A stretch of 24,000 bases of DNA from Pyrinomonadaceae bacterium (GTDB taxonomy: Bacteria; Acidobacteriota; Blastocatellia; Pyrinomonadales; Pyrinomonadaceae): assembly GCA_035760365.1 (NCBI GenBank), contig DASTTB010000015.1, positions 255,161-279,160 of the forward strand, given 5' to 3'. Position numbers and translations under genes: made by a program. Below the pieces are notes generated by a model that did no database searches, was not told the origin of the DNA, and saw nothing but the letters and a program-made list of their open reading frames with translations. Positions 1-10,714 of this stretch are shown in pieces (the first letter of the stretch is position 1; each line of letters begins with the position of its first letter).

Positions 1-744
1 GCGATCGATCTCGCGAGTCTCGGCGCTGCCGCCACCTCGCCCAACACAAATCAAGGACGACTCGCGTTTGCCACTGCCAACGTGCTCGCAGTGACCGCGC
101 TCGACGTGATCTGCGCGCGACAACTCAGCACTGGCAACCCGGGAATTCACGCGAGCGGAACATGCATCGTCAATCGCGAACCCGACGAGGTTTACAACTA
201 CTGGCGCGACTTTCAAAACCTCCCGCGCTTCATGAAACATCTCGAATCCGTCGAAGAATATGCCGACGGTTACTCGCACTGGGTCGCCAAAGGTCCCGCG
301 GGTATGAACGTCGAATGGGACGCGACGATCGTCGCCGACGATCCGGGTCGCGTGATCACGTGGCGCTCGCTCGAGAACGCTGACGTCGACAACGCCGGCG
401 CCGTTCGCTTTGAAGCTGCTCCAGGCGGACGCGGCACGATCGTCAAAGTGAACATTCAATACAACCCGCCAGGCGGCGTTCTCGGGAAAACCGTGGCGAG
501 GCTGTTTGGCGAAGAACCGGAGCAACAACTCGACGACGATCTCCGTCGCTTCAAACAGATGCTGGAAGTCGGCGAAGTGGTCGTATCCGATGCGACGTTA
601 TTCGGCACGGGTTACATGGATCAGCGTCCTGCCCGTCCCGCGGACAGAAGTGAACTGGAGAGTGTCGAACAGTTGCCGAGCCAGATGGCGACCAACTACG
701 AATCACTCGACGATGAGCGCGCGCGCGGGAGGATGCAACCATGA
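1..744 (+). CDS. SRPBCC (cyclase/dehydrase, START-like) family protein, probably 5'-truncated by the window edge
   Basis: The ORF track starts at GTG 82, but frame 1 has no stop back to position 1 ([27 protein letters not shown]...). The segment [29 protein letters not shown]...[19 protein letters not shown]...[32 protein letters not shown] reads like the SRPBCC/polyketide-cyclase-like fold. The stop overlaps the next start (ATGA at 741-744). Confidence 0.7.
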
Positions 745-2144: not shown

Positions 2145-3554
2145 TTAGACACCACCCGGCTTTTTGATCTTCAGCGCGTCTCTTTCATCGAAACTGTAAC
2201 CCTCTTTGTTGAGGACGAACTTTACAGGCTTCAGATTCTTATCGACGAGCACGTCGATCGGCTTTGCATAAAAATGTTTGCCGTTTCGCTCAGCCGTCGT
2301 ATGAATAATGTAGCGATGATTATCAAACAATCTGAGAACCACCGTGCCCTTCTCGTTAGTTTCTACTCGCTCACCCGGAGTGGACATCTCGGAGTTGATT
2401 TCATACCCCACGCCGACATTCACCGCAGGACTTCCATCGGGCCAAACAACAGTCACTTTCAACTCACGATCCGCCAAACGCGGAGGAAGCGTCAGATCAT
2501 AGCCTTTTAGCTTCTCTCCTTCGCCGACGGTAATCAGCGCCGCTTCCGAGCGAGTCTTCACGCCGGGATAATAAGTCTTGGGGTACGGATCATCCTTATC
2601 AGGCGCCCAACTGAGATTGAATCCCAGCAGGTAACTTCCCGGTTGGACGCGCGGAAACTCGTAACGTCCATCTTTGTCGGTCCAGGTGTACCAGTACTTC
2701 TCTTCGTCCTCGCCAAGCGCGAGATTCACCTGCACTTCCTTGGCAGGGTCACCGTTCGCCTGGACCACCTTGCCACTGACCATTCCGCTGAACTGCACGG
2801 TGAAACTTATCTCGTCGCAACCGCGATCGGTCAACTTAATGGGCCGGCGACCAGTGAAACGTCCGAACTCATCTTCCTCATCGCGACTCGAAGTCGCGGC
2901 AAGGTTGTCGGGCAACAGCGGGAAAGCGTCGTAGTCGCCCGGCGGTAACCCTGACACGCTGAATTCACCCGATTGATTCGTCACCGCTTCGATCTTCTGG
3001 CCGGGTCCGGTGATCATGACTTTAACGCCCGCCAGCTTTGGCCCTTCTTCAGATGGTCCATGTTCCGGATCGCCGATAATGCGTCGCAAGCTTCCGTGCA
3101 GCGTGGCGCCTGCCTTGGCCTTCGCGAGCCCGCGCAGGTATTCGAGATCTTCTTTCGCGTCGGCCTCCAGCTCCGTGCGCGTGCAGATGTTCGTGTAGAG
3201 CTTGTTGTCCTCCGTACTTCGATACGCGTAGACGACGTAGCTTTGGTTTCTCAAAAACCAGTAGCCGCAGTCTCCGCCGCCGGTGCCGCTATGAATCTCG
3301 ATTTCGTAACCGGGTGCGCCTTTGTAGTTTTCCTGGACCAGAAAGCGAATCGTGCCTACGTCGTAGGTGGTCTTCTCGCCGTTGGCATCGACGGTCCGTT
3401 GTTGAGCGCCGCCCACGACTCTACCGAGAAAAATCGCATCTGTTTTGCCGTAGTAACTGCACGGCGCGCCGGGTCTCATGCATGAGCAGGCGTAAGCGGC
3501 TTCGACCGCGAAAAGTATGAACAGGAGTGCCGCGAGGTGTTTGTAGATACGCAT
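2145..3554 (-). CDS. Secreted protein with an N-terminal TIMP/NTR-like Cys-x-Cys module followed by carboxypeptidase-regulatory-like beta-sandwich domains
   Basis: 469-aa ORF. Signal peptide MRIYKHLAALLFILFAVEAAYA followed by CSCMRPGAPC. Further Cys at mature positions 74 and 102. Repeats such as SGEFSVSGLPPGDYD and DGRYEFPRVQPGSYLL are typical of CarboxypepD_reg-like domains. AGGA lies about 9 nt upstream of the ATG. Confidence 0.85.
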   Translation of the reverse strand: MRIYKHLAALLFILFAVEAAYACSCMRPGAPCSYYGKTDAIFLGRVVGGAQQRTVDANGEKTTYDVGTIRFLVQENYKGAPGYEIEIHSGTGGGDCGYWFLRNQSYVVYAYRSTEDNKLYTNICTRTELEADAKEDLEYLRGLAKAKAGATLHGSLRRIIGDPEHGPSEEGPKLAGVKVMITGPGQKIEAVTNQSGEFSVSGLPPGDYDAFPLLPDNLAATSSRDEEDEFGRFTGRRPIKLTDRGCDEISFTVQFSGMVSGKVVQANGDPAKEVQVNLALGEDEEKYWYTWTDKDGRYEFPRVQPGSYLLGFNLSWAPDKDDPYPKTYYPGVKTRSEAALITVGEGEKLKGYDLTLPPRLADRELKVTVVWPDGSPAVNVGVGYEINSEMSTPGERVETNEKGTVVLRLFDNHRYIIHTTAERNGKHFYAKPIDVLVDKNLKPVKFVLNKEGYSFDERDALKIKKPGGV

Positions 3555-3573
3555 CAGGGGTTCCTATCGATTA

Positions 3574-5100
3574 TTACGACGACTCGCCACTCGGTTCGAG
3601 AAATAATCCTAATTCAGAGAACGCGGGACAAACCGGCGCTTGCGTTACACGCAGACGAATCTTCGTCGTTGTCACGGGTTTTCCCCGCAGCAGCCTGCAA
3701 TTCCCGACGCTGGTTCCGCGACCAGACTCCTGCCAGCCGTTGTCGTTCCAGACATCAAGCGCAAACGCTTCGACTCTTTGACCAAGCGGAAGATGTTCGC
3801 GCAGGCGAACGACGTTGAATGTTTGCTCGCGAGCGAGTTGCAGAATTAACTCGGGCGACTTCAGCTCATCATCCGTAGTCCAGTACGTATCGCGCCGGCG
3901 ATCGATGACGTTTCGCGCGGGGAAACCGCTGCGCGTGTTGCTCGCACTGACGCGCGCGCCCTGCGCGAGGTCTTGCGCAAACGTCGCGTCGAGAATACGA
4001 CGAAACTCACGCAGCGAATTCACGTCCGCGCCAGGAATTTGGCCGCGACGATCGGGCGCGAGGTTGAGCAAAAAAGAAGCGCCGCGACCGACGGACGAAT
4101 AGTAAAGATCGACGAGTGTCGCCGCGCTCTTGACCTTGTTGTCTTCACTAGCGTGATAGAACCAACCCGGCCTGATCGAAACGTCGCACTCGGCCGGCAC
4201 CCAATGCGTCCCCGGACGATCGCCGCGATTCAGCCGCGCTTCATCAGCTCGACCCGGCGCGAAGTCATCTTTATTCAGCGTGGACCAACACGGATCGCCC
4301 GCGATTCCTTTTTCGTTACCTACCCAGCGCACGTCCGGACCAGCGTCACTGAAAAGACAGGTGTCAGGTTGGAGCGTCCGCACGAGGTTCCACGTCGTGG
4401 GCCAATCGTAATAGGTGTCGCGATCGATCTTGCGCGTCTCGCGAGCGCCGCCGTAATAGCCGTCGCCGCCGTTCGCGCCGTCGAGAAAGATCTCGAACAC
4501 AGGACCACACGACGTCAGCAGTTCGCGCAGTTGATTGCGAAAGTAGATCAGGTATTCAGGACGGCCGTAATCTTTGTGGTTGCGATCCCACGGCGAAAGA
4601 TAGACGCCGAACTTCAGTCGATGCTTCCGGCAAGCGGCGGCAATCTCCTTCACGACGTCGCCGCGGCCGTTTCGCCACGGACTGTTCTTTACTGAATGCT
4701 CCGTGTATTTGGACGGCCAGAGACAGAACCCGTCGTGATGCTTGCAGGTCAGGATCAAACCTTTCATTCCCGCGGCGGCGGCCGTCGCCGCAATCTGATC
4801 GGCGTCAAAATCAGTCGGGTTGAAGAGCGACGGCGACTCGTCGCCGTAACCCCATTCCTTGTCAGTGAAGGTGTTGATCGTGAAATGGATGAATCCGTAA
4901 AACTCCATTTCATGCCAGCGAAGCTGTCGCTGTGAAGGTACGGGTCCGTACAGCGACGGTGGCCGAACCCTCGCGGCGCTCGCGATAGCTGAAGTGCCGA
5001 TCCAACCCGCCGCAACGGCGAACGACGACCGTTTCAGCAGTCTCAGAAACTCGCGGCGATCCTGATCGACGATTTTTCGACTCATTAAATCCCTAAACAT
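3574..5100 (-). CDS. Alpha-L-fucosidase (GH29) with a Tat-type signal and a C-terminal F5/8 type C (discoidin) domain
   Basis: 508-aa ORF. Twin-arginine motif DRREFLRLL. GH29 core HHDGFCLWPSKYTEHSVKNSPW, FGVYLSPWD and EIFLDGANGG. The C-terminal NVIDRRRDTYWTT...IRLRVTQ reads as discoidin-like. An alternative start ATG at 5085 (MSRKIV) is preceded by AGGGA and may be the true start. Confidence 0.9.
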   Translation of the reverse strand: MFRDLMSRKIVDQDRREFLRLLKRSSFAVAAGWIGTSAIASAARVRPPSLYGPVPSQRQLRWHEMEFYGFIHFTINTFTDKEWGYGDESPSLFNPTDFDADQIAATAAAAGMKGLILTCKHHDGFCLWPSKYTEHSVKNSPWRNGRGDVVKEIAAACRKHRLKFGVYLSPWDRNHKDYGRPEYLIYFRNQLRELLTSCGPVFEIFLDGANGGDGYYGGARETRKIDRDTYYDWPTTWNLVRTLQPDTCLFSDAGPDVRWVGNEKGIAGDPCWSTLNKDDFAPGRADEARLNRGDRPGTHWVPAECDVSIRPGWFYHASEDNKVKSAATLVDLYYSSVGRGASFLLNLAPDRRGQIPGADVNSLREFRRILDATFAQDLAQGARVSASNTRSGFPARNVIDRRRDTYWTTDDELKSPELILQLAREQTFNVVRLREHLPLGQRVEAFALDVWNDNGWQESGRGTSVGNCRLLRGKPVTTTKIRLRVTQAPVCPAFSELGLFLEPSGESS

Positions 5101-5619: not shown

Positions 5620-7905
5620 ATGCATTCACCCCTAAATGTGCCGGTCGCTAATCCTTCCGGCGGAAATCCGTCACCAGCGAGTGTCGAGTTCATGGTCAGC
5701 GGAAGATACGAAGGCGAAATGTCCGCGCCGACAACCGGACTCGATCTTCTAGATCTGCGCATCGACGTAGATCGAAGTTACGCAAACTCGCCGATCATGA
5801 ATCGCGTGAGCGGCGACTTTTACCAGTTGAACAAGATCACTGTTCCCGGTTCCCCGCCGCTTGTTTCGAGAGTCTTTAGAGAGTCGTGGATCGTGAGCGC
5901 GCCCGAAGTTACGCGACACGCCGACCAGGTGACGATCACGGGCTCCGTCGAGTTCTGGAAAGGCATACATCCGCCAACCACTCTGCAACTCGTGATTAAG
6001 AGTCCCGAAGCAGGCGTGGCCCAGATCGCGGAGGTGTCGTTTATTTCAGACGGGGGTCAACCCGCGCTGTACAACTGTCTCCGGAAATCGGACGCGTTTC
6101 GTGACCTCGATCTCGAAATCGACGTCTGCGGGTCAGTCAATCACGCGCCGGTTCTGCCCGAAATCCTCACGACGGATCATCCGGTGCGTCCCGGCGGCAC
6201 GGCGCAGCGAGTGCTGACGATCGAAGAGTCGTATCGAGAAGCGGGTGTGCTCGTTTCAATCGCACCAACTCACGACGTCATCGACGATTCGCATCCGCAG
6301 TTTGATGCGTGGTCGGCGGCGGAACTGCACGACGTGATGGAGAAAAACTTCAGCAGGATCGGCGGCGTGTGGCCGCAGTGGTCCATGTGGGGGTTGTTAG
6401 CCGGTACCTACAATGAGCCGCTTGTAGGCGGCATCATGTTCGACGCGGCTGCCGCGTTTGGCGGAGCAGGTTCAGCGCCGGAACGACAAGGCTTCGCGAT
6501 CTTCAGAGAACACCAGTGGTTCGATTTCCTCACCACGCGTCCGCCCGCAAACAAGGATCAGGCTGCGGCTGCACGCCAGTATTTGTATACATGGCTGCAC
6601 GAGGCCGGTCACGCGTTCAACCTTCTTCACTCGTGGAACAAGAATCGGCCCGACGCGCTTTCATGGATGAACTACGCGTGGAAATACGACAACCTTCACG
6701 GCACCGACAGTTTCTGGTCCAACTTCAATTTCAGGTTTGACGACGAGGAGTTGATCCATCTTCGTCACGGCGATCGTGCCTCCGTGATCATGGGAGGAGA
6801 TCCGTGGGCGTCGGGCGGTCACATGGAAGCGCCGCCGGGAGCAGAGTATCTCGCCGTCCCTCCGAGCGCGCTCTCGACGATCGACGGCGACGTGCCGCTC
6901 GAGTTGTTGATTCGATCCAAAGGTTACTTCGAGTTCATGGAACCGGTCGCGATCGAGTTGAGACTAAGAAACCTGCTGCCGAACCTGCCGCTCAATCTCG
7001 ACACGCGACTGAGTCCAGAATACGGCGGCGTCGTGATCCACATTCGACGTCCCGATGGCCGCATCATCGAGTATGCGCCCATCATGTGCAAACTCGCGAT
7101 TCCCGACTATAGAACGTTGTATCCATTGAGTGGTGACTCCGAACGCGGCGATGATCGCTACAGCGAAGAGGTCGTTTTGAGTTACGGCCGCTACGGTTTT
7201 TACTTCGACGAACCCGGAGAATACCTGCTCCGCGCGCTTTACCAGGGTGCCGGCGACCTTCTCATTCCCTCGAACGTTCACCGCATCCGAGTCGGAACTC
7301 CGCTCACGAGAGACCTGGACATCACCGCTCAGGATTATTTCTCTTACGAGGTGGGAATGAACCTGTACCTCGAAGGCTCTCGCTCGGAGTACCTGAGAAA
7401 AGGATTCAACGTGATGAAGGACATGAGCGAGAAATACAGCGATTCGCTACTCGGAGCGAAGTTAGCAGCGACAGTGGCGAACAGTCTCACGAAGCCGTTC
7501 TTCAGCGTTGAGCCCACAGACGCGTATCCCGAGACACGCGAAAAGCTCTTAACAAAAACGCATGACGCCGATCCCCAAGCAGTTCTGGAAATGACGGCTT
7601 CCGCCGTTGACCTCATTCGAAAGCGCAACGAAAAAGCGCTCAACCTTTCGTACCGGCAGATTGTCGGCCAGCGTGTTCATTGCCTCGTGTCACTGGAGCG
7701 AAATGAAGACGCGCGATCCGAAATCAACCAACTGTACGAAGACCTTCAAAATACCGGCGCCAATCCACCAGTTCTCCGGCAGATCCGTGCCTTCGCCGAC
7801 GAAGTCGATACAGCAGGAACGACTCGCGCTCAAAAGCTTTGGGAACGGGTCCGCGCACAAGATCGCAAAGTTGAAAAAACCCAGAAACAACAACGGAACC
7901 AATAA
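5620..7905 (+). CDS. Metzincin-like zinc metalloprotease, large multidomain, no signal peptide
   Basis: 761-aa ORF. HEAGHAFNLLH (6598-6630) has metzincin HExxHxxGxxH spacing with Asn in place of Gly. SWMNY (6661-6675) resembles a Met-turn. A beta-sandwich-like middle region and a helical Lys/Arg/Gln-rich C-terminus follow. AAGAGG lies about 11 nt upstream of the ATG. Confidence 0.85.
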   Translation: MHSPLNVPVANPSGGNPSPASVEFMVSGRYEGEMSAPTTGLDLLDLRIDVDRSYANSPIMNRVSGDFYQLNKITVPGSPPLVSRVFRESWIVSAPEVTRHADQVTITGSVEFWKGIHPPTTLQLVIKSPEAGVAQIAEVSFISDGGQPALYNCLRKSDAFRDLDLEIDVCGSVNHAPVLPEILTTDHPVRPGGTAQRVLTIEESYREAGVLVSIAPTHDVIDDSHPQFDAWSAAELHDVMEKNFSRIGGVWPQWSMWGLLAGTYNEPLVGGIMFDAAAAFGGAGSAPERQGFAIFREHQWFDFLTTRPPANKDQAAAARQYLYTWLHEAGHAFNLLHSWNKNRPDALSWMNYAWKYDNLHGTDSFWSNFNFRFDDEELIHLRHGDRASVIMGGDPWASGGHMEAPPGAEYLAVPPSALSTIDGDVPLELLIRSKGYFEFMEPVAIELRLRNLLPNLPLNLDTRLSPEYGGVVIHIRRPDGRIIEYAPIMCKLAIPDYRTLYPLSGDSERGDDRYSEEVVLSYGRYGFYFDEPGEYLLRALYQGAGDLLIPSNVHRIRVGTPLTRDLDITAQDYFSYEVGMNLYLEGSRSEYLRKGFNVMKDMSEKYSDSLLGAKLAATVANSLTKPFFSVEPTDAYPETREKLLTKTHDADPQAVLEMTASAVDLIRKRNEKALNLSYRQIVGQRVHCLVSLERNEDARSEINQLYEDLQNTGANPPVLRQIRAFADEVDTAGTTRAQKLWERVRAQDRKVEKTQKQQRNQ

Positions 7906-7930
7906 GGGTCCCCACCTGAGGAGTAGAACG

Positions 7931-10714
7931 ATGCCCGATACGAACGACCAACTTGAAGACGTAATTAAAAAGTACAGCAAGAACGATCCCGAGCTTTACG
8001 AAGAATTGAAACGCAAAATGGCCGCGGTCGAACCTGTTGCCGCGGCTAAATCTCTCGACATAGGCGTTGCCGCCGCTCTGCCTCCCGTCAGCGAACCCGG
8101 CGGCGCCGAACTAGCAGAAGCCGTCGGCCTGGAGACGATCGTGCGTCGCCAGGCGCGGCCCGTACTCGTCATTCGCGACAACCAAACCACGATGGAGTTT
8201 CTTGGACCAGACAGTGAAGTCTGGCGATCGCGACTCAACGACGCGAAACCGATTCTGGATCAAATCATACCCGCCATCGGACGCGTGGAAGTAACAAATC
8301 ATCCGGACTTCGACTGGGTCGGAACCGGTTGGCTTGTTGCCGACGACATCATCGTCACGAATCGTCACGTCGCGCAGGAGTTCGCGCGCCGCGGTATGAA
8401 CGGTTTCACGTTTCGGCCCGGCATCAACGGCGGTCCGATGACTTCGCGCATCGACTTTCTCGAAGAAGACCAGCGGTCCGACAGTCTCGAGTATGCCGTG
8501 AGCTCGGTTCTGTTTATCGCTTCGCTAAACGAACCGGACGTCGCCTTCATGCGACTGACACGACCGCAGACCAGCCGGCCACTGCCGCCGCCGATCGTGC
8601 TTGCGGACTCGATAACGGGCGACGAGTTTATCGCGACGATAGGCTATCCCGCGCGCGATTCACGCGTGCCCGATCAGGATCTCGTGCTCAGAGTGTTTGG
8701 CGATGTGTACGAGAAGAAACGGTTAGCGCCCGGAACGATCATCAGTGTCACGGCCGACGAGCTGCAACACGATTGTTCAACGCTCGGCGGTAACTCCGGT
8801 TCGCCCGCGATCGATCTCAGTACCGGACGTGCCGTTGGTCTGCACTTCTCGGGCTTGTTCATGCAAGCGAATTTCGCGGTGCCTGCGCCGAGGGTGCGTG
8901 AGTTGCTCACTCGCGTTCAGCGTGGAGAAGCCGCGATCGCCTCCGTGGGCGCCAATGGACACAACGGAAACGCACACAAAGCGCCCGCAACGTCGACAGG
9001 ACCAGTCGTTTCGGCAGGAACCAACACGTTCACCATGCAACTCAATGTGCCGATCGAAGTGACGGTGAAAGTCGGCGCCGCGACGGCTGGACCATCTCCG
9101 CAGATCACCACCACCGCACCCGCGCTGAATGGCGATCAGTTTGAATCGGCATTGAAAGCGGCGCGCGAGGCGTTTGCCGGCGATCCCGACATCACCGAGA
9201 TCCGCTTGGGCTATCGATTCAAACGAGGCTGGATCACCGACGAACGTGTCGTGGTCGTCGAGACCCGAAACAAGATGACCGCAACCGAGTTGGCGGCGGC
9301 AGGAAAGCAAGCACTCCCGTCACAGATTCTCGGCGTCGGCGTTGACGTTCGCACCGCGGCGTTAAGAGATCAACTCGAGTCGATGGGCGTGGACATGTCG
9401 TTTTTGGAAGCGCCCGCGCGTCCCGGCCGTTATCGTGAGCCGTCCAACGTGACTCTCGATCGGGTAAACGAACAGATGCGTGTTGTGTTTCACGTCAGCC
9501 CCGATTCCGGTTTCCCAAATCTGCGGAAGTTCCTGGGCCGCGTGCGCCAACACATGACCGCGACGATGTATGAATGGGAACCGAATCACATCAGCGACGC
9601 GATCGAAGCGGCGATGTCAGGCGCAGGTAAGTCGCTGCGCATGGTGACGCAGCGCCAGGGAACCCGCGAAGCTGTTGAAGATATGCAGCAACGTCTCGGT
9701 GCGAAGTTCAAACATGTGTGGGCGTCTGTCGGCGCGGGTAAACTCATCCCGTCCGCGTATCACATCAAGGTCGCGTCGCGCGACGGTGAAGAGATCTGGC
9801 TGTCGAGTGGAAACTGGAAAGACTCGAACCAGGCCGACATCGATCCCGCCGGTACGAACTCAACCAATATCGCGCCTCTTCGCGAACATAATCGCGAATG
9901 GCACGCCGTGATCGAGAATCGAAAACTTGCGACTATCTTTCAGAAGTTCATTGAATTCGATTTTCGCGAAGCTGAACGTGTGCCCGCTGACGAAGGTCTC
10001 GAGTTGACGCTACCGGACGTGTTCGTTCCCGAAGCGGCATTCATGGAAGACGTCGAACGAAGAACGCCGATCGATTTCTTCGACCCACTCGAACGCGATC
10101 GCGTGTTCGACATCCAACCGCTGTTGACGCCGGATCGCAACTCACAGGGCCAGCGCCTGTACCTCGAACATGCCATCGACATGATCAGGCGCGCGGAGAG
10201 ACGCATCTATGTCGAGAACCAGTCGTTCAACTTGCTTGACGAAGAGAACAACAACGAAGAGTTCGTTGAATTCTTCCAGGCGCTGCGCGAAAAACAGGAA
10301 GACGGTCTTGATGTTCGCATCATCTTCCGCGACGCGCGCGAGTTTGGCGCCAGCAATGGTCCAAAACAGCAGAAGCTGCTCGAGCGGTTGAAAGAGTTCG
10401 GCATCGACACTGACTCCATCAAGGTCCAGAGACGGTGTCACACGAAAGGCATCATCATCGACGGCGAGGAAGTGATGCTCGGAAGTCACAACCTGACTAA
10501 CCAGGGCAGCTTGTTCAATCGCGATGCAAGTCTTCTCGTGCGTGACGCTGAGGTCGCCAGGTACTTCGAAAAGATCTTCCTGTTCGACTGGAATAATCTG
10601 GCGACTCAGGAGACCGACGAGTTGGTAGGTGGAATGCGTGTCGCGTTGCCGACAGAAGCAACACCCGCCGGTTTCCGTCGGGTGTCGCTTTCGGAGTTGC
10701 TGGGCGAAAGCTGA
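7931..10714 (+). CDS. Fusion protein: N-terminal trypsin-like serine protease plus C-terminal phospholipase D superfamily domain with two HKD motifs
   Basis: The ORF-track frame opens at 7607 but overlaps the upstream gene. ATG 7931 is preceded by GAGGAG 8-9 nt upstream and lies 25 bp after the upstream stop, giving 927 aa. Protease triad: TNRHVA (His 8366-8368), EPDVAF (Asp 8537-8539), GGNSGSP (Ser 8795-8797). HKD1 is YHIKVASRDGEEIWLSSGNW (His 9761-9763). HKD2 is CHTKGIIIDGEEVMLGSHNLTN (His 10439-10441). No signal peptide or TM segment is seen. Confidence 0.9.
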   Translation: MPDTNDQLEDVIKKYSKNDPELYEELKRKMAAVEPVAAAKSLDIGVAAALPPVSEPGGAELAEAVGLETIVRRQARPVLVIRDNQTTMEFLGPDSEVWRSRLNDAKPILDQIIPAIGRVEVTNHPDFDWVGTGWLVADDIIVTNRHVAQEFARRGMNGFTFRPGINGGPMTSRIDFLEEDQRSDSLEYAVSSVLFIASLNEPDVAFMRLTRPQTSRPLPPPIVLADSITGDEFIATIGYPARDSRVPDQDLVLRVFGDVYEKKRLAPGTIISVTADELQHDCSTLGGNSGSPAIDLSTGRAVGLHFSGLFMQANFAVPAPRVRELLTRVQRGEAAIASVGANGHNGNAHKAPATSTGPVVSAGTNTFTMQLNVPIEVTVKVGAATAGPSPQITTTAPALNGDQFESALKAAREAFAGDPDITEIRLGYRFKRGWITDERVVVVETRNKMTATELAAAGKQALPSQILGVGVDVRTAALRDQLESMGVDMSFLEAPARPGRYREPSNVTLDRVNEQMRVVFHVSPDSGFPNLRKFLGRVRQHMTATMYEWEPNHISDAIEAAMSGAGKSLRMVTQRQGTREAVEDMQQRLGAKFKHVWASVGAGKLIPSAYHIKVASRDGEEIWLSSGNWKDSNQADIDPAGTNSTNIAPLREHNREWHAVIENRKLATIFQKFIEFDFREAERVPADEGLELTLPDVFVPEAAFMEDVERRTPIDFFDPLERDRVFDIQPLLTPDRNSQGQRLYLEHAIDMIRRAERRIYVENQSFNLLDEENNNEEFVEFFQALREKQEDGLDVRIIFRDAREFGASNGPKQQKLLERLKEFGIDTDSIKVQRRCHTKGIIIDGEEVMLGSHNLTNQGSLFNRDASLLVRDAEVARYFEKIFLFDWNNLATQETDELVGGMRVALPTEATPAGFRRVSLSELLGES

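Follow-up and report, generated by a model that had tools for sequence, protein, structure and literature searches.

The locus lies within a 24,000-nt window of the genome of a Pyrinomonadaceae bacterium, a soil member of the Acidobacteriota (assembly GCA_035760365.1, contig DASTTB010000015.1, positions 255,161 to 279,160 of the forward strand). A gene on the minus strand encodes a 469-aa protein, P0001, whose features are listed in Table 1. The translation of the ORF given in the first-pass annotation, MRIYKHLAALLFILFAVEAAYA, then CSCMRPGAPCSYYGKTDAIFLGRVVG...IRFLVQENYKGAP...GGGDCGYWF...YTNICTRT, was reproduced from the sequence. About 100 homologues are full-length (460-480 aa) and share the same start region. 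Only 19 bp separate the gene from the stop codon of its upstream neighbour, which encodes an exported alpha-L-fucosidase; no promoter-like site was found in this gap. The nearest metzincin-like gene lies at positions 5620-7905 of the window and carries the atypical motif HEAGHAFNLLH. Since its product lacks a signal peptide, and is apparently cytoplasmic, it was set aside as a target.

Table 1. Features of the gene for the TIMP-like protein P0001 (window positions; mature residues are counted from the Cys after AYA).
Feature	Positions	Strand	Basis
Ribosome-binding site AGGAA, 4 nt 5' of ATG	3559..3563	-	Read from sequence
Whole gene with its stop codon, encoding the predicted exported TIMP-like protein P0001 (469 aa)	2145..3554	-	ORF list and translation
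Predicted Sec signal peptide, precursor residues 1-22 (MRIYKH / LAALLFILFAV / EAAYA), SPase I site between AYA and C	3489..3554	-	-3,-1 rule
Codons TGC TCA TGC, mature Cys1-Ser2-Cys3, predicted free N-terminal tip	3480..3488	-	Sequence and conservation
Predicted TIMP/NTR-type OB-fold domain, mature 1-107	3168..3488	-	Pfam TIMP, family profile against PDB, Foldseek
Cys10 codon, putative partner of Cys224	3459..3461	-	Covariation
Cys74 codon, in GGGDCG	3267-3269	-	Sequence
Cys102 codon, in ICTRT	3183-3185	-	Sequence
Predicted alpha-helix following the barrel, conserved (mature 112-123)	3120..3155	-	DSSP on both AlphaFold2 models, and conservation
Beta-sandwich 1, mature ~128-222, transthyretin/Cna-B-like	2823..3107	-	Pfam SpaA and CarbopepD_reg_2, residues 169-208; AlphaFold2 strands 128-219; boundaries approximate
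Cys224 codon (DRGC), boundary of beta-sandwich domains 1/2	2817..2819	-	Covariation
Beta-sandwich 2, mature ~224-335, CarboxypepD_reg	2484..2819	-	Pfam PF13620, best stretch 259-310; AlphaFold2 strands 224-321; boundaries approximate
Beta-sandwich 3, mature ~340-430, MG4/transthyretin-like	2199..2471	-	Pfam MG4 at 365-407; AlphaFold2 strands 340-425

The first-pass annotation had predicted that signal cleavage exposes an N-terminal Cys-Ser-Cys. Application of sequence rules across the family bore this out: in 227 of 228 relatives a motif [AV]-x-[AG], fitting the -3,-1 rule, lies directly before the CxC, which occupies the +1 position of the SPase I site with no spacer. Ten gene calls with unusually long leaders were inspected, and every one contained an internal Met with a signal peptide. 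As SPase I is predicted to cut P0001 after Ala22, the mature chain would start with Cys1-Ser2-Cys3. At residue 2, where P0001 has Ser, 94 of 100 close relatives and 119 of 138 distant ones carry Ser or Thr.

A Cys placed after a signal peptide that ends in a small residue could also be the acylation site of a lipoprotein, an alternative raised in the earlier annotation. The N-terminus would then be blocked and the protein anchored in the membrane, as is the case for Tim of Listeria, a lipoprotein with the lipobox LTAC (PMC8235301). A loose, PROSITE-like lipobox pattern fits 38 of the 228 relatives and a strict pattern, [LVI][ASTVI][GAS]C, 14 of them; however, P0001, whose signal peptide ends in AAYA immediately before the Cys and carries a Glu at -5, matches neither. 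Position -2 is occupied by a polar or charged residue (D, E, K, R, N, Q or H) in 86 of the 228 relatives, which makes a conserved lipobox incompatible with the family. Moreover, the alignment pairs Cys1 with the Cys1 of TIMP-2, which is disulfide-bonded. Acylation thus appears highly improbable.

For P0001 itself, the sequence signal for kinship with TIMPs is borderline. The Pfam TIMP model (PF00965) aligned with residues 22-125 over profile positions 2-108 of 183 (E = 1.9e-4), scoring 18.0 bits with the full-length protein and 21.7 bits with residues 20-160; the gathering cut-off of 23.1 was not reached. Three relatives with the same architecture (P0069, P0090 and P0079) score above this cut-off, at 25.1-29.0 bits, and 59 of 143 relatives match the model at E <= 0.01, the best at E = 3.5e-9. 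When the family profile was searched against the PDB, TIMP-2 ranked first (E = 5.8e-4), with positions 1-103 aligned on 1-101 and the four core Cys of the family in register with Cys1, Cys3, Cys72 and Cys101 of TIMP-2. In the HMMER alignment, the family stretch 'aFrGvegk' falls on 'mFKGpekd' of TIMP-2, confirming the FKG strand proposed at the outset. A PDB search with P0001 as single sequence returned beta-sandwich matches only; its N-domain is covered by no NCBIfam model, and the Pfam NTR model (PF01759) gave no match in P0001 even at E <= 10.

Structure prediction pointed in the same direction as the profile. Two AlphaFold2 models were obtained, with pLDDT values of 95.7 and 93.8. The OB/NTR fold anticipated by the first-pass annotation, a five-stranded barrel with helices, was recovered in the N-domain model (pLDDT 93.8), for which the best 19 Foldseek matches in the PDB were TIMP-1, -2 and -3 (E = 1.4e-5 to 1.2e-3; TM <= 0.67, normalised by N-TIMP length; identity 15-20%). 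Next in the list came the NTR module of PCOLCE (1uap) and agrin NtA (1jc7, 3i70), with E values of 3e-3 to 2e-2. The helix that follows the barrel is conserved, A111, D114 and L115 being close to invariant in the family. Could the resemblance to TIMPs have arisen by convergence or chance among Cys-rich OB folds, in the absence of common ancestry? The low identity and the position of P0001 under the Pfam cut-off would allow it, the more so as the four aligned Cys supply much of the 20-bit score. Against this, several traits coincide: the fold, the register of the four Cys, a location just behind the signal peptide, Ser or Thr as residue 2, and the FxG strand. In addition, relatives exceed the curated cut-off with matches that span the N-domain. 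We consider convergence or chance improbable.

The profile search against the PDB also gave weak matches to norovirus 3C-like proteases around the GDCG motif (E = 0.008-0.03); these lie about 3.5 bits below TIMP-2 and look spurious. Taken at face value, they would make GGGDCG a cysteine-protease-like or N-terminal-nucleophile active site and the protein an enzyme. Kinship with the viral proteases was rejected on account of the fold and of the lack of a conserved His: the prediction shows one OB barrel of the TIMP type, and neither the double barrel of chymotrypsin nor the alpha-beta-beta-alpha sandwich of Ntn enzymes, and the residues at invariant or near-invariant positions comprise Cys, Gly, Phe, Tyr, Ala, Arg, Thr, Asp and Leu. 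In addition, Cys74 of the motif aligns with the disulfide-bonded Cys72 of TIMP-2. We give almost no credence to an enzymatic role. P0001 is very probably a TIMP-fold homologue with a free N-terminal Cys.

Mature Cys residues were found at positions 1, 3, 10, 74 and 102, exactly as counted in the first-pass annotation, and a sixth, absent from that account, at 224. Two alignments, of 109 and 143 relatives, show Cys1, Cys3, Cys74 and Cys102 to be invariant, indicating that the pattern is not due to chance; by analogy with TIMP-2 these residues would form the disulfides Cys1-Cys74 and Cys3-Cys102. Cys10 and a Cys at about 205-225 are kept or lost together (168/2/1/4 in relatives; 42/3/3/30 in genome loci), and from this covariation we infer an inter-domain disulfide, Cys10-Cys224. 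Both residues are missing from short members of the family in Bacillota and Chloroflexota. Since Cys224 is the next Cys of P0001 after Cys102, the third N-domain disulfide of TIMPs (Cys13 to Cys~124-126) is absent.

Downstream of the N-domain, the CarboxypepD_reg-like domains reported initially were readily detected (Pfam PF13620, E = 2.8e-18) and belong to a set of three predicted beta-sandwiches. Foldseek matches of the full-length model were pilin/Cna-B stalk domains. The C-terminal domain of TIMPs, with its three further disulfides, is lacking in P0001, the Pfam TIMP match stopping at profile position 108, and the sequence beyond the third beta-sandwich showed no recognisable C-terminal anchor or sorting signal. 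The three domains probably constitute a stalk or an exosite module.

In animals, the endogenous regulation of matrix metalloproteases is the textbook role of TIMPs, which are usually treated as metazoan proteins. P0001 shares with TIMP-1 to TIMP-4 (PF00965; MEROPS I35) the OB barrel, the Cys-Ser/Thr-Cys start directly after the signal peptide, the FxG strand, a helix after the N-terminal segment and the four core Cys that in TIMP-2 form the Cys1-Cys72 and Cys3-Cys101 pairs. It differs in its bacterial host, in having three transthyretin-like domains instead of the TIMP C-domain, and in the loop before Cys74, which is Gly-rich (GGGD) in P0001 and Ser/Ala-Val in TIMP. Furthermore, whereas the Cys13-Cys124/126 bond of TIMPs lies inside the N-domain, the putative partner of Cys10 in P0001 is located some 120 residues later, in the beta-sandwich region. 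The NTR modules of netrins, complement C3/C4/C5, sFRPs, PCOLCE and agrin (NtA) are of the same fold class, with weaker matches than TIMPs.

Three bacterial systems invite comparison. The serralysin inhibitors AprI, Inh and SmaPI (MEROPS I38) are exported, periplasmic proteins whose N-terminal residues enter the metzincin active site towards the zinc. They contact their metzincin in a TIMP-like manner (PMC8235301) and offer a functional precedent for a periplasmic inhibitor that acts N-terminus first; unlike P0001, they lack the CxC, are usually encoded beside the protease, and have an unrelated fold and sequence. Potempin A of Tannerella forsythia is an OB-fold-based inhibitor of the MMP-like karilysin and of MMP-12 (PMC9890683). 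It differs from P0001 in being an outer-membrane lipoprotein co-transcribed with its protease; it acts by a 'bilobal' mechanism with no N-terminal zinc chelation, and is described as otherwise unrelated to TIMPs (PMC9890683). The third, Tim of Listeria monocytogenes (LMRG_00714), is paired with the metzincin Mtz (PMC8235301). Like P0001 it is bacterial, and it has a predicted TIMP-like structure and ties to metzincin biology (PMC8235301). In contrast to this lipoprotein, P0001 combines an SPase I site with a similarity to TIMPs that is detectable in sequence, and is without an adjacent canonical HExxHxxGxx[HD] metzincin gene. The authors of the Listeria study found no record of bacterial TIMP-like structures (PMC8235301). 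In our literature search, Tim was the sole bacterial protein termed 'TIMP-like', and no bacterial TIMP homologue of the P0001 kind was described.

An exhaustive search at E <= 0.001 yielded 5070 clusters (50% identity). Culturable Paenibacillus species are among the carriers of the family. To look for a partner protease, flanks of +/-6 kb were scanned at 35 family loci, drawn from 28 further genomes of the phylum, and at 80 loci from many phyla. The metzincin pattern HExxHxxGxx[HD], which misses the atypical HEAGHAFNLLH protein, was found in none of the genes within the 1.29 Mb flanking these 115 loci; about 2 were expected from the background rate in the genome of the bacterium (10 matches per 6.56 Mb). 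An all-against-all BLAST of flanking ORFs revealed no conserved neighbour at the 115 loci, the matches reflecting only synteny local to a lineage and families that are abundant, among them FtsX-like permeases and short-chain dehydrogenases. Five loci inspected singly had no common neighbour and did not keep the fucosidase gene. Because no protease gene is linked to the family, the gene for a target would lie elsewhere in the genome or in other organisms. The genome of the bacterium carries approximately 8 candidate metzincin genes by motif, two of them matrixin-like, and some of its products, with scores above the Pfam M10 cut-off, are possible targets. Next to one of the matrixins, P0249, lies an upstream gene for a small secreted protein, P0250; this was considered as a Cys-poor relative of P0001 and rejected (hhalign probability 1%, no Pfam match).

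The kinship with TIMPs and the free Cys-Ser-Cys tip make blocking of a zinc protease probable. The most likely function, to which we assign a slightly better than even chance, is tight-binding, TIMP-like inhibition of metzincin-type zinc proteases. The protein would be exported and cleaved after Ala22; in a diderm cell it would be periplasmic unless secreted further. With Cys1 and Cys3 tied to Cys74 and Cys102, the N-terminal strand would sit on a ridge together with loops 70-74 and 100-103. Cys1 would chelate the catalytic zinc through its free alpha-amino and carbonyl groups, and Ser2 would point into the S1' pocket. The three transthyretin-like domains, standing in place of the TIMP C-domain, would be tethered to the N-terminal helix via the Cys10-Cys224 bond.

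Docking was carried out with the catalytic domain of a matrixin from the same genome (P0248) in the presence of Zn. The isolated N-domain gave a median ipSAE of 0.34 and three controls all gave 0.00, a result that weakly supports a TIMP-style mode of docking. Pairs similar to complexes of known structure may score well through memorisation by the docking tool, and TIMP-MMP complexes have been solved. Residues 1-5, 70-74 and 100-103 of the inhibitor share one surface in the docked model and face His179, Glu180, His183 and His189 of the HEIGHLLGLDH motif. These predicted interface residues were no more conserved than the rest of the N-domain (p = 0.29), and mature positions 4-8 are highly variable in the family. 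The full-length mature protein did not dock confidently onto the P0248 matrixin (ipSAE 0.00), a score that by itself is neither support nor counter-evidence; it raises the possibility that the beta-sandwich domains occlude or alter the ridge.

These data also bear on the alternative that P0001 is a TIMP/NTR-fold binder with no inhibitory role, recognising another ligand (a polysaccharide, a cell-envelope component or a protein) at the end of an adhesin-like stalk of three domains. Its fold is common to non-inhibitory NTR modules, those of PCOLCE and agrin having been matched as well, and its C-terminal domains resemble pilin/Cna-B stalk domains. The absence of any genetic link to metalloproteases and the failure of the full-length protein to dock fit this alternative, and the exported fucosidase encoded just upstream hints at a glycan-related setting. 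This neighbour, however, is not conserved in the five other loci, and the best matches by both sequence and fold are TIMPs rather than other NTR modules. Non-inhibitory NTR modules are mostly internal or C-terminal and devoid of a free Cys1, whereas the TIMP-like domain of P0001 is strictly N-terminal; a CxC set exactly at the signal-peptidase site in nearly all members is a restriction for which a generic binder would have no use. We hold a purely binding role to be unlikely, albeit of appreciable weight, and favour metzincin inhibition.

A broader proposal, which we advance tentatively and rate at a little under even, is that the inhibitory module of TIMPs did not originate in animals but forms one branch of this very large prokaryotic family, made of exported proteins with a free N-terminal Cys-x-Cys ridge that blocks zinc proteases. 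At least two bacterial formats would exist: a soluble one with three beta-sandwiches and an extra inter-domain disulfide, exemplified by P0001, and a short one with a C-terminal membrane helix, in Paenibacillus and Chloroflexota. Because family genes are unlinked to protease genes, these proteins would serve in soil communities as broad-acting shields, directed at metalloproteases of foreign or self origin. With fold, N-terminal Cys-x-Cys and core Cys register shared across the family, the origin of the fold would move back to prokaryotes. The family would supply a new class of candidate metalloprotease inhibitors from soil and rhizosphere bacteria, including culturable Paenibacillus amenable to genetics, and natural scaffold variation for inhibitor engineering at residues 4-8, in the Gly-rich ridge loop and at the inter-domain disulfide.

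This large bacterial family is largely without annotation, some members being already tagged as TIMP by Pfam. As a separate observation, and a lead only, a search of the ESM Atlas yielded only bacterial clusters without names, along with one in which 19% of the members carry the Pfam TIMP domain.

The N-terminus of P0001, the TIMP-like protein of the window, reads MRIYKHLAALLFILFAVEAAYA in translation. Its leader combines a basic n-region, a hydrophobic core of 11 residues and an AxA c-region, and is followed by CSCMRPGAPCSYYG. Numbered from the Cys after AYA, the mature protein has Cys residues at positions 1, 3, 10, 74, 102 and 224; the first five had been correctly listed in the first-pass annotation, which overlooked Cys224. 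The CarboxypepD_reg-like domains it had also described were recovered by Pfam as two to three CarboxypepD_reg/transthyretin-like beta-sandwiches (PF13620, E = 2.8e-18). The N-domain is not covered by any NCBIfam model, and homologues are annotated in their sources as "hypothetical protein" or "carboxypeptidase regulatory-like domain-containing protein".

Positions of the P0001 gene, its modelled domains, neighbouring genes and related loci elsewhere
Feature	Position	Strand	Description
P0001 ORF	window 2145-3554	-	1410 bp, 469 aa; TIMP-like part at 5' end
Ribosome-binding site	4 nt 5' of P0001 ATG	-	AGGAA, from sequence
Conserved helix	mature 112-123		after barrel, AlphaFold2 model
Beta-sandwich domain 1	mature about 128-222		AlphaFold2 model
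Beta-sandwich domain 2	mature about 224-335		AlphaFold2 model
Beta-sandwich domain 3	mature about 340-430		AlphaFold2 model
Alpha-L-fucosidase	window 3574-5100	-	PF01120, 508 aa, C-terminal F5/8 type C domain
HEAGHAFNLLH protein	window 5620-7905	+	761 aa
Peptidase/PLD-like ORF	window 7607-10714	+	PF13365 and PF13091
P0248, matrixin-like protease	L009:85-2190 (G000:C14)	-	701 aa, secreted
P0249, matrixin-like protein	L010:295-2244 (G000:C12)	-	649 aa, secreted
P0250	L010:2328-2942	-	204 aa, secreted
TIMP-family-clustered gene	L008:5232-6059	+	
CarboxypepD_reg protein	L008:1066-1998	+	
Short-format member	L091:5872-6486	+	about 25 similar among L092-L131
Short-format member	L115:5917-6522	+	

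Leaders were judged by sequence rules in the 228 family sequences in which they are complete. By the -3,-1 rule, an SPase I-type site lies immediately before the CxC motif in 227 of them; Ala or Gly fills position -1 in 227/228, and Ala, Val, Thr and Ser predominate at -3. Since 86 sequences have D, E, K, R, N, Q or H at position -2, a conserved lipobox is incompatible with the family. A PROSITE-like lipobox pattern fits 38 of the 228 and a strict one 14, with P0001 matching neither. Ten gene calls in which CxC seemed to lie 37-128 residues in were inspected, and all ten contained an internal Met and, after it, a normal signal peptide. In the family, Cys1 always follows the cleavage site directly, with no spacer. 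Ser or Thr occupies position 2 in 94 of 100 close and 119 of 138 distant relatives, as in TIMPs. The zinc ligand of TIMPs is the free alpha-amine of Cys1, and inhibition is abolished by N-terminal extension. Because CxC is held at the cleavage site as strictly as in TIMPs, the free N-terminus probably matters in the P0001 family, the strict position of Cys1 being the strongest argument.

The Pfam TIMP profile (PF00965) matched residues 22-125 of P0001 over profile positions 2-108. With the N-terminal part scanned alone the match scored 21.7 bits (E = 1.9e-4), narrowly below the curated cut-off of 23.1 bits; for P0001 taken alone, the sequence signal is borderline. The profile was matched at E <= 0.01 by 59 of 143 relatives (best 3.5e-9), and three relatives of the same architecture as P0001 cleared the cut-off with 25.1-29.0 bits over the entire N-domain. 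When a family profile was compared to all PDB sequences, the TIMP-2 N-domain ranked first (2tmp, E = 5.8e-4; 1br9, E = 1.3e-3). Profile positions 1-103 aligned on TIMP-2 1-101, placing the four invariant Cys on Cys1, Cys3, Cys72 and Cys101 and the family's "FrG" on the "FKG" of TIMP-2, a strand likeness already pointed out in the first-pass annotation. Hits to norovirus/calicivirus 3C-like proteases were weak (E = 0.008-0.03), those to norovirus following only about 3.5 bits under TIMP-2; they arise where the GGGDCG columns of the family profile (A2; mature 70-75) meet the GDCG active-site motif of these proteases. Kinship with them was rejected as a motif coincidence: the folds differ and the family conserves no His.

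AlphaFold2 models built without templates reached a pLDDT of 95.7 and a pTM of 0.85 for full mature P0001, and a pLDDT of 93.8 for the N-domain. In a Foldseek search of the PDB, the best 19 entries for the N-domain model were TIMP-1, -2 and -3 (E = 1.4e-5 to 1.2e-3; highest TM 0.67 with N-TIMP normalisation), with the PCOLCE NTR and agrin NtA domains beneath them and generic OB folds last. Kinship with TIMPs is drawn from the agreement of these independent features (Pfam, PDB profile, AlphaFold2 and Foldseek), not from any single E-value. Together with the leader rules, they give good support to the TIMP/NTR-like module with an N-terminal Cys-Ser-Cys that had been proposed, and we consider it very likely that P0001 is exported and that its mature chain opens with the Cys-Ser-Cys of a genuine OB domain of the TIMP type. 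P0001 shares with TIMP N-domains the fold, the position of Cys1, the register of the core Cys and Ser2; apart from the narrow shortfall against the Pfam cut-off, it differs in lacking the C-domain and the third intradomain disulfide (Cys13 to Cys~125 in TIMPs). The only bacterial TIMP-like protein found in the literature searched was the Listeria lipoprotein Tim (PMC8235301). Potempin A, an OB-fold inhibitor, works by a different mechanism (PMC9890683).

In structure, the sandwich domains of P0001 best match stalk domains of the Cna-B/pilin type and the TIE protein of B. anthracis, and P0001 shows neither a C-terminal anchor nor a sorting signal. Of the long database sequences, 168 have both Cys10 and a second Cys at about 205-225, 4 lack both and 3 are mixed (Fisher p = 2e-6); the corresponding figures for genome loci are 42, 30 and 6 (p = 7e-15). 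These p-values overstate the case, since kinship of the sequences was not controlled, yet the pattern is clear. As the two Cys co-occur or are jointly missing, short members included, an inter-domain Cys10-Cys224 disulfide is inferred, which would pin the N-terminal helix to the stalk.

A word-indexed search returned about 100 homologues of full length (460-480 aa), the named ones from Pyrinomonadaceae (Acidobacteriota). An exhaustive HMMER search with the N-domain only, against 1.84 billion cluster representatives, gave 5070 clusters at E <= 0.001, of which 946 reached E <= 1e-10. No sequence in the two alignments (109 full-length, 143 N-domain) departs from C1, C3, C74 and C102, and conservation exceeds 90% at C10, C224, G71, G75, F78, Y84, Y87, R104, T105 and D114. 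Family matches occur in 29 of 201 sampled genomes of the phylum, among them 7 of the 10 from Pyrinomonadaceae; the genome of P0001 carries a single copy. A pattern scan in which each species was represented by one genome extended the family to Acidobacteriota classes, many culturable Paenibacillus species, Sporosarcina, Psychrobacillus, Chloroflexota, Dormibacterota, Verrucomicrobiota, Ignavibacteria and others. Members from Bacillota (Paenibacillus, Sporosarcina, Psychrobacillus) and Chloroflexota are short (about 160-190 mature residues): a signal peptide, a four-Cys TIMP-like domain and a linker, ending in most of them with a predicted transmembrane helix, with neither beta-sandwiches, Cys10 nor Cys~205-225. 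Their culturable hosts are suited to experiments. Another sampled genome (G034) has four copies of the family. At locus L008, which encodes the homologue P0102, the gene immediately upstream of the TIMP-like gene joins the TIMP-like family in BLAST clustering and an additional CarboxypepD_reg protein is encoded 4 kb upstream, which suggests a local paralogue expansion.

The best single explanation of these features, and the one towards which we lean, is that the free Cys1 ridge of P0001 would block zinc proteases. Its own genome contains ten HExxHxxGxx[HD] motifs, about eight plausible as metzincin; P0248 (HEIGHLLGLDH) and P0249 (HEFGHSIGLSH) score above the Pfam matrixin cut-off (PF00413). 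When the P0001 N-domain was docked to the catalytic domain of P0248 (residues 36-240) together with Zn, ipSAE values were 0.45, 0.34 and 0.31, and three controls gave 0.00 each. Of 80 solved complexes 58 reach the mark used, and of 110 mismatched pairs 2 do so, but a pass no higher than 0.60 is wrong in most cases if the pairing was not likely from the start; resemblance to solved complexes can also yield such scores through memorisation by the predictor. The docked interface is of the canonical TIMP type, with inhibitor residues 1-5, 70-74 and 100-103 set against His179, Glu180, His183, His189 and strand 123-132 of P0248, and the models weakly support TIMP-style binding. Full-length mature P0001 docked to P0248 with an ipSAE of 0.00, giving no support and raising the possibility that the stalk domains may restrict access to the ridge. 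The main rival, which we hold to be rather unlikely, is that P0001 is an NTR-type binder carried on a stalk and inhibits no protease. Conservation is no higher in the predicted interface than elsewhere in the N-domain (p = 0.29): positions 4-8 belong to the most variable ones, and Ser2, GGGD (70-73) and I101-T105 are conserved. As to the matrixin-like proteins themselves, P0248 (HEIGHLLGLDHS...STM) contains a CarboxypepD_reg-like domain of its own, a beta-sandwich type that it has in common with P0001, and a C-terminal DUF4214. Directly upstream of P0249 on the same strand lies P0250, which has no Pfam family and aligned to the CxC family with a probability of 1% (hhalign).

Gene context provided no support for zinc-protease inhibition. 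The P0001 gene lies 19 bp downstream of the alpha-L-fucosidase gene, whose product has a twin-arginine-type (Tat) leader (RREFLRLL...). No promoter-like site was found in the gap and thus the two genes are likely co-transcribed. The pairing was not seen in five other family loci, where the neighbours are YkuD/SurA, DUF6603, HEAT and others. In the 1.29 Mb that flank 115 family loci there was no broadly conserved neighbour and no canonical HExxHxxGxx[HD] motif, the scan requiring the Gly and so missing relatives of the HEAGHAFNLLH type. With no linked exported metzincin, any target of P0001 would therefore be encoded elsewhere or be foreign; target genes of animal TIMPs likewise are not linked. 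The HEAGHAFNLLH motif itself, atypical and metzincin-like, occurs in a protein encoded 2 kb from the P0001 gene. This protein has no Pfam match and no N-terminal signal peptide and is probably cytoplasmic; it was rejected as a target, as it would not meet an exported inhibitor. A further single ORF of the window joins a trypsin-like peptidase domain to a PLD-like domain, an unusual fusion.
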